Positions 7,457 to 64,000 of a DNA stretch of 64,000 nucleotides are shown piece by piece. The first letter of the stretch is position 1; the number at the start of each line of letters is the position of its first letter. The DNA lies in contig MU057051.1 in the NCBI GenBank assembly GCA_013239625.1, positions 1,361,603 through 1,425,602 of the forward strand, given 5' to 3'. Under the pieces are notes generated by a model. It had not been told where the DNA came from. It ran no database searches and was given only the letters and a program-made list of their open reading frames with translations. This DNA comes from Lama guanicoe (Eukaryota). Both the position numbers and the translations under genes were made by a program.

Positions 7457-7652
7457 NNNNNNNNNNNNNNNNNNNNNNNNNNNNNNNNNNNNNNNNNNNN
7501 NNNNNNNNNNNNNNNNNNNNNNNNNNNNNNNNNNNNNNNNNNNNNNNNNNNNNNNNNNNNNNNNNNNNNNNNNNNNNNNNNNNNNNNNNNNNNNNNNNNN
7601 NNNNNNNNNNNNNNNNNNNNNNNNNNNNNNNNNNNNNNNNNNNNNNNNNNNN
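7457..7652. other. N-gap
   Basis: Run of n. Confidence 1.
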
Positions 7653-15107: not shown

Positions 15108-15247
15108 NNNNNNNNNNNNNNNNNNNNNNNNNNNNNNNNNNNNNNNNNNNNNNNNNNNNNNNNNNNNNNNNNNNNNNNNNNNNNNNNNNNNNNNNNNNNN
15201 NNNNNNNNNNNNNNNNNNNNNNNNNNNNNNNNNNNNNNNNNNNNNNN
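15108..15247. other. N-gap
   Basis: Run of n. Confidence 1.
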
Positions 15248-22283: not shown

Positions 22284-22631
22284 NNNNNNNNNNNNNNNNN
22301 NNNNNNNNNNNNNNNNNNNNNNNNNNNNNNNNNNNNNNNNNNNNNNNNNNNNNNNNNNNNNNNNNNNNNNNNNNNNNNNNNNNNNNNNNNNNNNNNNNNN
22401 NNNNNNNNNNNNNNNNNNNNNNNNNNNNNNNNNNNNNNNNNNNNNNNTCAGCTGCTGGAGGAAAATAAAACTGTTNNNNNNNNNNNNNNNNNNNNNNNNN
22501 NNNNNNNNNNNNNNNNNNNNNNNNNNNNNNNNNNNNNNNNNNNNNNNNNNNNNNNNNNNNNNNNNNNNNNNNNNNNNNNNNNNNNNNNNNNNNNNNNNNN
22601 NNNNNNNNNNNNNNNNNNNNNNNNNNNNNNN
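22284..22631. other. Two N-gaps (22284-22447, 22476-22631) around a 28-bp island
   Basis: Runs of n. Confidence 1.
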
Positions 22632-41832: not shown

Positions 41833-42268
41833 NNNNNNNNNNNNNNNNNNNNNNNNNNNNNNNNNNNNNNNNNNNNNNNNNNNNNNNNNNNNNNNNNNNN
41901 NNNNNNNNNNNNNNNNNNNNNNNNNNNNNNNNNNNNNNNNNNNNNNNNNNNNNNNNNNNNNNNNNNNNNNNNNNNNNNNNNNNNNNNNNNNNNNNNNNNN
42001 NNNNNNNNNNNNNNNNNNNNNNNNNNNNNNNNNNNNNNNNNNNNNNNNNNNNNNNNNNNNNNNNNNNNNNNNNNNNNNNNNNNNNNNNNNNNNNNNNNNN
42101 NNNNNNNNNNNNNNNNNNNNNNNNNNNNNNNNNNNNNNNNNNNNNNNNNNNNNNNNNNNNNNNNNNNNNNNNNNNNNNNNNNNNNNNNNNNNNNNNNNNN
42201 NNNNNNNNNNNNNNNNNNNNNNNNNNNNNNNNNNNNNNNNNNNNNNNNNNNNNNNNNNNNNNNNNNNN
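41833..42268. other. N-gap
   Basis: Run of n. Confidence 1.
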
Positions 42269-46302: not shown

Positions 46303-47073
46303 TTCTTTTTGTTTGGTTGATTTTTTTGTTTGTTTTGAGGGTTTTGTTTTGTTTTTTTAACTGAAGTACAGTCAGTTACAGTGTGTCAATCTCTGGTGTA
46401 CAGCACAATGTCCCAGCCATGCATATACATGCATATATTCATTTTCATATTTTTTTAATTAAAGGCAATCACAAAACACTGAATATAGTTCCCTGTGTTA
46501 TACAGAAGAAATTTGTTTTTTATCTTTTTTTATATATAGTGGTTAACCTTTGCAAATCTCAAACTCCCAAATTTATTCCTTCCCACTCTTTCCCCCAGTA
46601 ACCATAAAATTGTTTACTATGTCTGCATATCTGTTTCTGTTTTGTAGATNNNNNNNNNNNNNNNNNNNNNNNNNNNNNNNNNNNNNNNNNNNNNNNNNNN
46701 NNNNNNNNNNNNNNNNNNNNNNNNNNNNNNNNNNNNNNNNNNNNNNNNNNNNNNNNNNNNNNNNNNNNNNNNNNNNNNNNNNNNNNNNNNNNNNNNNNNN
46801 NNNNNNNNNNNNNNNNNNNNNNNNNNNNNNNNNNNNNNNNNNNNNNNNNNNNNNNNNNNCTTCCTTATCCAGTCATCTGTCTATGGACATTCAGGTTGAT
46901 TCCATGCCTTGGCTACTGTAAATAGTGCTGCTGTGATCATTGGGGTGCATGTATCTTTTTGAATTAGAGTTCCCTCTGGATATATGCCCAGGAGTGGGAT
47001 TGCTTGATCATATGGTAAGTGTATGTTTTAGTTTTTTAAGGAATCTCCATACTGTTTTCCATAATGGCTGCAC
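46303..47073 (-). mobile_element. Young L1 3' end (contains N-gap)
   Basis: T-rich tail, ctgaagtacagtcagttacagtgtgtcaat...; atatgcccaggagtgggattgct...ctccatactgttttccataatggctgcac. Confidence 0.92.
46650..46859. other. N-gap inside L1
   Basis: Run of n. Confidence 1.
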
Positions 47074-51992: not shown

Positions 51993-52379
51993 GTTTAAGT
52001 AAAGCAATGTTTTAGAGCTATTTCCACCTCTACTTTTACCCAAATCTAAGGTCTAGCTCCCCAAAGAGACATACGATATTGTCGTCCCTCCCTCCATTTG
52101 CATCCATATCTTAATTATCAAGAAAGGCAACACAAAGAATATGAAATAGTTCTTTGAGATTCCAGGGCAGCGGTCCAGCGCAGAGAGGAAATGCCAGTAA
52201 CCTCCCAACCAGGAAGGCGCCATCCCACCCCGCACCCGCTGAGCAGCCCCAGGGCGCGGGCAGGGGCGCCTGCGCATGCGTTAGTTCCGCCCCCCACAGG
52301 GCGGAGGGTGCGGGCGGGGGAGGGTGACGCCACGCCTCCGCTTCCGCCGGCTGCCGGGTCTGGAGGAGGTCGGGATGTT

Positions 52380-52604
52380 GCCACTTCCGCCGGGTCCGCT
52401 CTCTGCCTCCGGGTCAGCCACTGCCGCTGCCGCCGCTGCCGCTGCCGTTGCTGTTGCCGCTGTGGCCGGGGGACTAGCCCGGGTCTCACAGCTGTCGGAG
52501 GGGAGCGGGCTCCGCTCGGCACTACCTTCTGCGACCTGGCCGTCAGCCCTACGTCGCCGGGCTGGAGGGGCGAAGAAGACGAGGAGGCCAAGGCTTCCTC
52601 CGGG
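52380..52604 (+). other. BNIP2: BNIP2 exon 1 (5' UTR in the canonical model; start approximate)
   Basis: Consensus donor GGG|GTAAGT at 52604/52605 inside the CpG island. The TSS is inferred only from motif positions. Confidence 0.8.
52421..52467 (+). repeat. Imperfect (GCC/GCT)n trinucleotide repeat in exon 1
   Basis: ctgccgctgccgccgctgccgctgccgttgctgttgccgctgtggcc read directly. Confidence 0.85.
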
Positions 52605-54419
52605 GTAAGTGCGACTAGGGAAGGCTGAGCACGGCGGGTGTGAGCTGGGAACAGGCCTGGGGGGGCGGACGTCTGAGGGGCCCTTACCCAGGACCGTCCG
52701 AGGAAGGAAGCCCAGGGCGTTGTCCGTTGTGGCGAGCGCCATAGGAACTGCCTCGAGGCGCTTCCTGGATCCCCGCCCAGCTGAGGCCCCCGCCCTTGCC
52801 TGGGCTTCTGCTTGCTTTTGCCATCCTTGCTTCCCCTGTCTTCGTCCCACCCCTTTTCCGTTTGTGATGGTTTTGCGCCGCAGGGAACTTGCCTTCTCAG
52901 CCCCCTTCAAACTCCGCCGTCTGGATACGGTGACTGTGTCAAGTTGATCCCTTTTTGTCACCAGCGTCGGTCCTTGTGCAGAACAAAGAAACTTGGACGT
53001 CTAATGTGCTCCGCACCCTTGGGGAACAGACACGGAAGCGGCGTTTGTAATCAGGCTTTAATGGACTTTCCAACGCCCAAAGCCGAGTTCTGCGTGGATT
53101 CAGACACTACCTTGTACTTAAATACCTGGCAAAAGTGATTTGGGTTTCCTGGGGTGTATCTAATGTCACTGGAGGTATACTAGGTCAACTCAGAAATTTA
53201 TATGAGTCTGTTACGTTGCTTTGAACTTCCCCTAGTCTTCCTGTTCTGGGAGTCCTTTGAGGGCACGGCGCTTGCCATGTTCATCCAGGTAGTCATAGTG
53301 TCTTCCATATCGTTAGTGGAATGAAGTGTGTGGTTGCATTTTGGTGTTGCTTTTTTCGTCCTCTCTCTTTTTCATTAGGACCTTTATTTCTCCTAATGCT
53401 TAATTTTCAAATTAACCGCATTTTATCTCTAAAATTGTATAAGAATTTCTGCAATTTGTAAATGGATGTTTCCTCAGAATTGTAACTGAAGTTACCGTAT
53501 CTAGTTACCCTACAACATACTATCTTGATGATCTTGCACAGCTTTTCCTTAGTTCCGATCATTTAACGTTTTCTCTAAACTGTATTCTTTTCACAATCTC
53601 CTCTATTGCAGCCTAATATTATTGTTGGGTTTAGACAGGAAGTATGATAGGTCCACTTCTGCAAACCTGGGGGTTGAACTAGATGAGCATAAGTCAGTGC
53701 TATTGTAGTCTTACAGGACTTAGAAGCTATGTGTAAATCTGGCATTACGGGCTTATTCTTTATAAAGTTGCCAGTGAACTGGAGACAGTGTACTGTATTA
53801 AAAACAGTCTTGGTCTAATTTGGGAACCAAGATACAGTGTCATTTGTCTCTATTGTATAAGATAAAATGGGGATAAAAACACCGATGTTTTATATGACAC
53901 AAAATTTTTGGTTGGAACGTATGAGATGATGAATGTACAAGTGGTTAGTAAATGTGAGAAGCACTCTTTGGAAAGGTGGTTTTCTTCATTTCATCTGGAG
54001 TCATGCTGCTAGATAGAAAGAGCAGCAGTGGAGAAAGTCACCTAAGAAAGGAAGTGTATGTAAATATATTGGAATATCCGATAAACTGGTCTTGGCTGAC
54101 ATTGAATCAAAAGATGTCTTGAAGCTTACATTCTCTAAAGCAGAGTACTAGTATAATATGATGATAGTGATACTCCAAATTTACAACTTTTTATTAAACC
54201 TAATTGTAACTCTACAATGAAGTGTTAGAGATCAGTTATTAGACAATCTTAAAGATCTCAGAGCATCTCCAGTATGTTCTGCATACTTATAATATGATAA
54301 ATGTACCTTTTGTAGGTGGCATAATTATCCTGTGCTTTATTATCTTCACAATTTTGAGAAATGTCAAACCATTGTAATTCTTCTTGAACTTTGTGTTAAC
54401 ATCTCTGATAGAGTATCAC

Positions 54420-54812
54420 ATTTAATTGAGGTATATAATTGACATGATATTTTGTTTCAGGTGTACAACATTGAGGTATAATGGACATTGAACATATTAA
54501 TTTAAGGTGTACAGCATGAAGATTTGATATTTGTTTATATTGCAAAGTGATCGCCACAATAAGTCTAGTTAATATCCATCACCGTTCTTAGTTACACTTT
54601 TTTTCTTGTGATGAGAACTTTTAAGATTTACTCTCTTAGCAACTTTGAAATATCTAATACAGTAGTATTAGCTATAGTCACTGTGCTGTGCTGTACATTC
54701 CCAGGGCTTTTTTTTAGCTGGAACCCTGTTCCATTTGATCCCCTTCACCCATTTAACCTACCTCCCACCCCTTACCGCTGGCAACCAACAGTCTGTTCTC
54801 TGTGAGCTTGAC
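54420..54812 (-). mobile_element. L1MA-like 3' end in BNIP2 intron 1
   Basis: ttaattgaggtatataattgacat...taagatttactctcttagcaacttt...ctggcaacca. Confidence 0.85.
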
Positions 54813-56706
54813 TTTTTGGGGGGTTTGGTGTTTCTGTTAACTTGTGAGTCAGCAGTATTCTGATTTCCTTCAAAGTGGTTCTGCTTATATTGCTCCTTTC
54901 TTGTTTGTTTCCTGTTCCTACAGCTGCTGATGACAATGTGCTTCCAAGAGCAGTCCTCTCTCAATAAACTTTTTATCTGCCTAGGGTACTTTTTCCTCTA
55001 GAATTTGAAATGGTTAAGAGTGAATCTGTCTCTCCTCCTAGGTTCTGTTTAACTAGCTTAAATAATTATTCCCAAACTAGGTATCCATAACCGTATGCTG
55101 TGATGTATTAACATTACGAGATTCAATGATGTTAAAGTAAGAACTGAATGAATCAGCTGAGCGGGCTGAAGGACTCTGGCTTGCTGTGTATATTTTCACG
55201 TGATAGACTCGTTCAAGTGGTAAAGCAGCTAAAAGACATGGTTTGTCCTCTCGAATTTATCGAGATATGTATTTTCTCTTACAAACAAGGAATGATTTTA
55301 CCAACAGAAATTGATACTATGTGTAGATAGGTTGGGGCAAATGTTTCCACGACTCTTTTTGAGGGGTAAAACTTAACAGGAAGCCTATTTATATAGGGAA
55401 ATTAGAAAAATAAGCTTAAGAGATTGAGCAAAACACAGACACTTCAAAAAATTTCTAGTGTAACTTTGTCATTGTTCTGGAACATAATGGTTTTTTGTAC
55501 AACTTTGTGTGTCTTTTGAATGTTGTAATGACATAGTAGATAAGGCAACCATATAATATCACCACAAGTTATATATACATGGTTTTAAAAGTTAAATAAC
55601 TTAGAAAGATTTACTATGAAAAGCCTGATTTTCCCCATCCCACTTTCTTCCACTTTGTTATTAAAACTTCTAGTGATAATCTAGTAATACTTTTTCTCTC
55701 TGAAGAGTTGTGTGTTTTACTGCTTTTTTAGAAAATAACTTTAGCCATTTGTTGACTTACTCTAGTGTAAGTGAACTAAATAACTTGTTTATACCTCTTG
55801 GCCCCCAGAATTGTCACAGTTTTTGTTGCGCTGTTAACCAGTTGATCTTAATGACTTTTTAAGCAATATACTTATACCTCTATTTTTTATTTCATCAACC
55901 ATACCAAACTCTAGATCCTTCATTGTGTAAAATTAGGATACTGACACCTCCATCCTTCCTTGGAAAAACTAAAACTAAAATTTTTGGACCAAGGTAAAAC
56001 ATGTAGTTGCATTAGTAGAAATATTCGTTAAGTTCAGTATCCGAAAACTCACGTTAAACTGTATGAGAAAAGCTTGGTATAGATATGAAGCAAATCAAAA
56101 TGTAGCGTAATTCATTTACTGGACAGTTAATGAATAACCTTTAAGTGGCTCGGGAATTATGGCATTGGAACTGTGGAGAAGGAAATATAAAAGACCGCAC
56201 GACACTTGGCTCTCCTGAATTGTGAACATGTAAATGCTATTTACTATTATTTAGTTTCTAGAATTAACCTCTCCAGAGGACAGAAAATTTAATTATAGGT
56301 CTAGAGTAGAGAATGTATTTATTTAATTTTAGTATTTGTGTCCCTTTCCCCAGTTGCTTTTACATAATTTATAGTTCCTAATAAATGTTAAATCACATAC
56401 TTGAACACATATGCATATATGCAACTGGAAAGTATTTAATTGCACGATACCCTAATTACCAAACAGTGATTACTAGAATATATATACCCTGTTTTCTAAT
56501 TGGAAAAAAAAAAGTGGTAGTTGCAACCCAATAAATGTATTTCCTGACCCAGGGTGGAGGTGTGAGCTAAGGTATAAGATTTTTGTGTCTTTTCGGAAGA
56601 TAAAATGGAAAATAAGCTGTTAAAATTTTTTCCTCTTTTTTTTTTTCAGGACATTGGCTCTCTGGATTATCAGGAGCCTATAGTTGACATTGAGTCCAGG
56701 CTGAGG

Positions 56707-56756
56707 ATGGAAGGTGTAGAACTTAAGGAAGAATGGCAAGATGAAGATTTTCCAAT
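56707..56756 (+). CDS. BNIP2: BNIP2 exon 2 coding part (exon 56650-56756): [16 protein letters not shown](I)
   Basis: Poly-T acceptor ...ttttcag|G at 56649/56650. ATG at 56707 in aggATGG context. Donor AT|gtgag at 56756/56757. Peptide matches the N-terminus of BNIP2 as I recall it. Confidence 0.96.
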
Positions 56757-57784: not shown

Positions 57785-57852
57785 ACCTTTACCGGAAGAT
57801 GATAGTATTGAAGCAGATATATTAGCTGTAACTGGACCAGAGAGTCAGCCTG
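57785..57852 (+). CDS. BNIP2: BNIP2 exon 3: (I)PLPEDDSIEADILAVTGPESQP(G)
   Basis: ttctag|A acceptor, G|gtaag donor, 68 nt, phase 2 to 1, consistent with neighbours. Contains IEAD, the granzyme B site described for human BNIP-2. Confidence 0.95.
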
Positions 57853-58324: not shown

Positions 58325-58501
58325 GCTCAGTAGAAGTTAATGGCAATAAAGTAAGAAAGAAACTAATGGCTCCGGACATTAGCCTTACTCTGGATCCTAG
58401 TGATGGCTCTGTGTTGTCAGATGACTTGGATGAAAGTGGGGAGATTGACTTAGATGGCTTAGATACACCATCCGAGGACAGTAATGAATTTGAGTGGGAA
58501 G
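58325..58501 (+). CDS. BNIP2: BNIP2 exon 4: GSVEVNGNKVRKKLMAPDISLTLDPSDGSVLSDDLDESGEIDLDGLDTPSEDSNEFEWE
   Basis: ccag|GC acceptor, G|gtaaat donor, 177 nt. Lies in ORF 58294-58527. EWE(D) is the W-acidic kinesin-light-chain-binding motif type. Confidence 0.97.
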
Positions 58502-60154: not shown

Positions 60155-60331
60155 ATGATCTTCCCAAACCTAAGACTACTGAAGTTATTAGGAAAGGCTC
60201 AATTACTGAATATTCAACAGCAGAAGAAAAAGAAGACGGACGACGCTGGCGTATGTTCAGAATTGGAGAACAGGACCACAGGGTTGATATGAAAGCAATT
60301 GAGCCCTATAAAAAAGTTATCAGCCATGGAG
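60155..60331 (+). CDS. BNIP2: BNIP2 exon 5: DDLPKPKTTEVIRKGSITEYSTAEEKEDGRRWRMFRIGEQDHRVDMKAIEPYKKVISHG
   Basis: gacag|AT acceptor, G|gtaag donor, 177 nt. Lies in ORF 60127-60351 and leads into the BCH/CRAL-TRIO domain. Confidence 0.97.
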
Positions 60332-63136: not shown

Positions 63137-63239
63137 GATATTATGGGGATGGATTAAACGCCATCGTTGTGTTTGCTGTCTGTTTTATGCCCGAAAGTGG
63201 TCAGCCTAACTATAGATACCTGATGGACAATCTCTTTAA
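63137..63239 (+). CDS. BNIP2: BNIP2 exon 6: [34 protein letters not shown](K)
   Basis: tttcag|GA acceptor, AA|gtaagt donor, 103 nt. BCH domain. Confidence 0.97.
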
Positions 63240-63958: not shown

Positions 63959-64000
63959 GTATGTTATTGGCACTTTGGAGCTGTTAGTAGCAGAAAACTA
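63959..64000 (+). CDS. BNIP2: BNIP2 exon 7, truncated by window end: (K)YVIGTLELLVAEN(Y)
   Basis: ttttacag|G acceptor. Phase matches exon 6 and continues the BCH domain. Confidence 0.95.

Follow-up and report, generated by a model that had tools for sequence, protein, structure and literature searches.

Where does translation of BNIP2 start? The question is raised by a stretch of 64,000 nucleotides (nt) from Lama guanicoe (the window), in which a CTG codon in exon 1 of BNIP2, at 52536-52538, lies in frame with the annotated start codon in exon 2. All positions are window coordinates on the plus strand unless marked otherwise. An earlier note on this DNA had proposed the CTG as the start of an N-terminally extended BNIP2 protein, and had doubted that the form was new. 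We put the probability at roughly 85% that this CTG is the orthologue of the human start named uTIS C and that it likely starts a BNIP2 longer by 42 residues in this species. As a new finding the CUG-started form was rejected, since it is in print (Van Damme et al., 2014; PMC4169252). A CUG-started long BNIP2 is thus already known since 2014.

The published work carries much of the evidence. Van Damme et al. (2014) named the orthologous BNIP-2 codon uTIS C and cite a ribosome profiling (Ribo-seq) initiation site at this codon in HEK293T cells. The codon was mutated from CTG to CTC, with primers covering human and mouse; an extended human BNIP-2 variant was assigned to uTIS C and protein bands were reported. 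The exchange that the earlier note had suggested as a check had therefore already been made. The size of the extension is given as 4.5 kDa. By our reading by eye, the uTIS C product starts 42 codons before the annotated Met in both human and mouse, across the same exon junction, and the CTG with its context is identical in the complementary DNA (cDNA) clones of both species. In mouse, the largest band came from uTIS B, while mutation of uTIS A was without effect. Start use varied with the cell line.

The window contains the same arrangement. The context of the CTG, GAC-CTG-G with G at -3 and G at +4, is as strong as had been claimed. The spliced leader is in frame with the BNIP2 ATG over 42 codons and contains neither a stop codon nor an in-frame AUG, in agreement with the phase 0 junction and the addition of 42 residues described earlier. 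We infer the splicing of intron 1 from its GT-AG sites (donor GT at 52605, acceptor AG just before 56650) and from the identical junction in the human and mouse cDNA clones (by eye). The 42-residue extension has a computed mass of 4.56 kDa with and 4.43 kDa without the initiator. It has a net charge of -6 and two serine/threonine-proline (SP/TP) sites. It is identical to the human uTIS C extension at 38/42 residues (P0007) and to that of mouse at 33/42 (by eye). A Pfam search with both extension pieces gave no family above the cut-off.

The identity of the gene is clear from the downstream sequence. Six further exons with GT-AG ends keep the BNIP2 frame open for 247 residues to the window end, beyond which the gene continues. 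In the first two blocks of 42 annotated residues, 39/42 and 42/42 are identical to human BNIP2 (P0007). All named proteins among the exon 2 matches listed are BNIP2, the remainder being unnamed models, and the closest mammalian match among the best 120 of 314 is from Camelus ferus (P0002, 97% over exon 2). The BNIP2 (PF12496) and BCH/CRAL_TRIO_2 (PF13716) domains were found in the homologues P0152, P0012, P0097 and P0110, on which the scan was made.

To what extent is the start conserved? We compared 200 proteins, 68 of which carry the exon 1 segment. Of 19 distinct non-marsupial segments, 17 have Leu where the CTG lies; a camel model which splices around the site and a pangolin model with a different first exon do not. 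The distance to the annotated Met is 42 in the listed non-marsupial models except for the cetacean insert models and an anchorless read-through open reading frame (ORF). The insert, 16 residues in frame between exons 1 and 2, is found in the toothed-whale models P0013, P0187-P0190, P0192-P0194 and P0196-P0200. Filtering for Leu at the first position and a length of 42 left 21 distinct placental-type extensions, which match the window at 31-38 residues and have 19/42 invariant columns. At codon 9 of the extension (52560-52562) the window and camel P0002 have Gly, and all 21 other distinct placental-type extensions have Ala. The position of the start thus appears conserved across species, at the protein level outside of the window, human and mouse.

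The exon 2 part of the extension goes back much further. A protein search with exon 2 gave 314 matches among 385 candidates, and the 120 best, ranked by likeness to the segment, are listed. In all 120 the annotated start motif is preceded by LR. E at -5 occurs in 117 of them, and Q at -12 and E at -11 each occur in 118; 115 have S at -16 and 112 have G at -17. These counts are inflated because the matches were ranked by likeness to the same segment. Independent of this ranking, the segment is found inside the gene models of zebrafish (P0110), axolotl (P0097), newt (P0105), frog (P0114) and caecilian (P0060), the proteins of which start at a Met 40-132 residues upstream. Across 14 aligned proteins its G, S, E, L and R are invariant and its Q is nearly so. 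In mouse Atcay, which encodes caytaxin, Met1 and Met10 both serve as starts, and the primers read EATLR before Met10 (PMC3511541); this also confirms the caytaxin start which the earlier note had given. Taken together, the segment within the fish and amphibian proteins and the two caytaxin starts indicate that the exon 2 'leader' is old coding sequence, and suggest that the long form is not noise. In marsupial models (P0018), RVS precedes GSL where placental models have GDI, and VS corresponds to the first two intron codons of the window (52602-52610, 56650-56656). The marsupial junction may have slid by 6 nt, the extension length staying at about 42.

Table 1. Features of the BNIP2 5' region and coding exons in the window.
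Feature	Position	Strand	Remarks
In-frame ATG	52191..52193	+	157 codons upstream of the annotated ATG; used by one Camelus ferus model
Promoter-like stretch	52266..52390	.	CpG-rich, TATA-less
Upstream ATG matching the start of long models	52375..52377	+	out of frame here; 87-codon ORF ending at TAG 56681-56683 if spliced
CTG at the place of human uTIS A	52460..52462	+	out of frame, 5 codons then TAG; position by eye
One-base shortfall against hippopotamus and whale reading	52477..52478	+	frame 1 match ends at 52476, frame 0 match begins at 52479
CTG near-cognate start	52536..52538	+	orthologous to human and mouse uTIS C
Exon 1 part of extension	52536..52604	+	69 nt, 23 codons; two SP/TP sites, acidic run
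Predicted 7-bp hairpin	52543..52565	+	just downstream of the CTG
Intron 1 (predicted)	52605..56649	+	GT-AG, phase 0
Exon 2 part of extension	56650..56706	+	57 nt, 19 codons
17-residue segment	56656..56706	+	teleosts and amphibians to mammals; pattern GSL..QE.....E.RLR before the annotated Met
Annotated BNIP2 ATG	56707..56709	+	A at -3, G at +4
BNIP2 coding exons 2-7	56707-56756, 57785-57852, 58325-58501, 60155-60331, 63137-63239, 63959 to 64000 (window end)	+	

Several results weigh against this reading of the CUG. Leu is found in none of six distinct marsupial segments, all six having Gly at this position with the flanking segment kept. The codon itself was seen as DNA in three species (window, human and mouse), the evidence elsewhere being Leu. 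The homologue set is biased, as it consists of models with an open upstream frame, and broken cases would be missed. Over the extension, 10/126 bases differ between window and human, five synonymous and five non-synonymous, without a gap (by-eye count). The codon test on this one pair is not significant, with a ratio of non-synonymous to synonymous differences (pN/pS) of 0.31-0.40 and P of 0.065-0.127. In all eight proteins chosen for comparison, the extension (31-38/42) is less conserved than the next 42-residue blocks (33-41/42 and 36-42/42). The claim of coding constraint in the earlier note is thus borne out at the protein level and not proven at the codon level, where the pattern is suggestive.

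Nor is the open frame of the leader a proof of coding, and as such it was rejected. Shuffled sequences stayed open with a frequency of 0.63 for the exon 1 part and 0.33 for the exon 2 part, jointly about 0.21, which is the probability of finding the frame open by chance. The predicted fold of the 75 nt at and downstream of the CTG is no more stable than that of shuffled sequences (z -0.31; 71/200 shuffles as stable). A stable structure downstream of a non-AUG start is common and not required. Between 52370 and the ATG, five other near-cognate codons combine a purine at -3 with G at +4, and two of these, ATT 56653 and ATT 56689, are in frame; between 52335 and 52535 there is no in-frame near-cognate codon. 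Given these five codons, the open frame and the shuffle-like fold, the sequence alone does not prove the start. CTG 52536 is singled out because it is orthologous to a tested start and is conserved.

If the CUG is used as we propose, both forms would arise from one mRNA by leaky scanning. Some ribosomes would initiate at the CUG, the context of which is good, and translate the rest of exon 1 and then the first 19 codons of exon 2, while the remaining ones would proceed to AUG 56707 and make the short form. The long and the short protein would both contain the BNIP2 and BCH (CRAL-TRIO-like) domains. In this genome uTIS A, uTIS B and the upstream AUG are either absent or out of frame, so that the probable leader would have no upstream start other than the CUG.

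The two upstream AUGs, at 52375 and 52191, were not mentioned in the earlier note, and they offer a different explanation of the conserved leader. The conservation might stem from an ordinary AUG, the counterpart of ATG 52375, with the CUG being secondary; the window would then show an assembly error or a lineage-specific loss, or ATG 52191 would be used instead. A Met about 84-94 residues before the annotated Met starts, or lies in, many mammalian models. It is in frame in human (P0152), apes, monkeys, hippopotamus (P0012), right whale (P0144), manatee (P0016), tenrec (P0028), koala (P0018) and other marsupials, and is present as an internal Met in pig (P0017); the lengths differ. The marsupials keep this Met without the Leu. 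Further, the constructs of Van Damme et al. (2014) carried only 53% and 82% of the leaders; the clones begin at the equivalent of about 52400-52410 (by eye), and because this is downstream of the AUG, its counterpart was untried in that study. With the same constructs the CUG product was reportedly seen without the upstream AUG. The AUG is out of frame not only in the window but also, as a counterpart, in hamster P0180 and in P0026, and it is replaced by Val in muntjac P0032 and by Trp in P0121, whereas these four models retain the Leu encoded at the place of the CTG and the frame that follows it. ATG 52375 also adjoins an ETS-like motif at 52383, and this motif may account for the conserved letters; the transcript may start at the ATG or downstream of it, the ATG then being kept as part of the promoter. 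Within the promoter-like stretch we take 52266 and 52272 to be NRF1-like motifs, 52287, 52299 and 52312 to be GC boxes, and 52341 and 52383 to be ETS-like motifs. ATG 52191 is upstream of these motifs and thus probably of the transcript start. It is backed by one camel model, and the frame beginning there gave 11 matches (6570 candidates), all covering 28-33% of the query, its last part, with none extending beyond the last third. We regard an origin of the conserved leader in an upstream AUG as very improbable.

ATG 52375 is out of frame by one base. Up to 52476 the long models align with one frame of the window, and from 52479 or 52500 onwards with the BNIP2 frame. Near 52477 the window is one base shorter than the hippopotamus and whale reading, and the ATG and the BNIP2 frame are therefore out of step. 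This may be a lineage change or an assembly error; no camelid with which the shortfall could be compared is among the cluster members listed (84 of 706 in six clusters). The assembly is a draft, as seen from six runs of N with 1302 bases in all (7457-7652, 15108-15247, 22284-22447, 22476-22631, 41833-42268 and 46650-46859), which bears on this difference. Over about ten codons at 52452-52479, the peptide of hippopotamus, pig, whale and muntjac differs from that of human, manatee, tenrec and marsupials, after which the frame is restored. Even-toed ungulates thus appear to have two one-base changes that compensate for each other. The ORF from 52375 (52375-52604 joined to 56650-56683) contains a poly-Ala run; it overlaps with the extension from the CUG and ends 23 nt short of the main ATG. 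If transcribed, this 87-codon ORF would compete with the CUG.

It is also conceivable, and in our view unlikely, that the CUG is used at a low level and that the extension is without function, the leader being kept for the sake of the promoter, the RNA or splicing, and as a remnant of ancestral coding sequence. The non-significant codon test is compatible with this, and over the first 12 codons the human and mouse clones have the same DNA sequence, even at synonymous sites (by eye), which fits a constraint at the DNA or RNA level. Granzyme B was reported to cleave all extended forms equally, and that study tested no other function of the extensions (PMC4169252). Most extensions detected by Ribo-seq are without phylogenetic support (PMC9789052). 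The residue identity which reaches fish and amphibians in exon 2, and the invariant columns among the placental-type extensions, argue for a constraint on the protein. The protein bands were visible (PMC4169252), and a similar pair of starts exists in caytaxin (PMC3511541). Codon, frame, size, orthology and protein-level conservation of the extension are observed. Initiation at this codon was reported for human constructs (PMC4169252); in this species the CUG is probably translated, and the extension may be under selection.

A broader interpretation, which we offer tentatively and consider rather doubtful, is that BNIP2 has an ancestral functional part in the 17 residues which precede the annotated Met, that the long form has been made throughout vertebrate history, and that its start moved from AUG to CUG in placentals. 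Fish and amphibians would use an upstream AUG, caytaxin its Met1, and marsupials an upstream AUG or other Leu codons. The newer placental CUG would have become a dependable start, and the upstream AUG would have decayed in several lineages including that of the window. In that case the ratio of long to short form would act as a tunable and conserved switch on the N-terminal tail, adjacent to EEWQDED, a motif which we take to be of the tryptophan-acidic kind that binds kinesin light chain. Studies of the 314-residue form alone would miss such a switch.

Intron 1 contains two stretches resembling alternative first exons of other species. At 53926-53967 the window matches 13 of the first 14 residues of cat P0009, where a Met-started first exon is spliced to exon 2; the window frame at this stretch stops after 28 codons (by eye). 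At 52962-53003 it matches part of mangabey P0004, an alternative first exon there, in frame with exon 2.

Finding the long BNIP2 in another mammal adds only a point of conservation to a form printed in 2014. Work on BNIP2 which expresses only the annotated short protein may nevertheless miss the long one. If the one-base difference is real, this genome offers a natural example of the CUG left alone, with the longer upstream starts out of frame. In the collection of papers searched, no later functional study of extended BNIP2 forms was found, PMC4169252 being the sole relevant paper listed. BNIP2 is not named in the main text of PMC3105428. It is absent from the main text and the searched supplements of PMC9789052, of which files 4 and 13 were unsearched and could list it, and was not found in the searched supplements of PMC5749180, of which the same applies to file 1. 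The PMC9789052 pipeline discards extensions overlapping annotated coding exons, and the human AUG-started BNIP2 model would be expected to cause such discarding.

In comparison with known systems, the match to BNIP-2 uTIS C (PMC4169252) is the closest: gene, CTG, context, distance of 42 codons, splice junction and size of 4.5 kDa are alike, and codon, frame and product of the earlier note are those of uTIS C. The window differs from human and mouse at the places of uTIS A and uTIS B, which are out of frame or lack a near-cognate codon, so that a counterpart of the mouse form that is longer by 7 kDa is not to be expected. The same 42 residues stand within the longer N-terminus of AUG-started models from human (NP_004321.2, 435 residues, P0151; EAW77575.1, 404 residues, P0152) and hippopotamus (XP_057578587.1, P0012), and the doubt about novelty was justified on this count also. 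These long database entries are gene models only, and they start at AUGs which are out of frame in the window, at 52276 (2 codons) and 52375 (87-codon ORF). Three of the papers cited are PMC3105428 (Ivanov et al., 2011), PMC9789052 (Fedorova et al., 2022) and PMC3511541 (Sikora et al., 2012). The conserved non-AUG extensions of mammalian genes (PMC3105428; PMC9789052) likewise have a near-cognate codon in good context, an AUG-free in-frame extension and conservation in mammals. Caytaxin (ATCAY) is a paralogue with two starts, its Met10 being equivalent to the annotated Met of BNIP2 (PMC3511541). The addition from its first start ends in EATLR, compared with EARLR in fish BNIP2 and ESRLR in the window. 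Both caytaxin starts are AUG and the first adds nine residues, whereas the CUG of BNIP2 adds 42.

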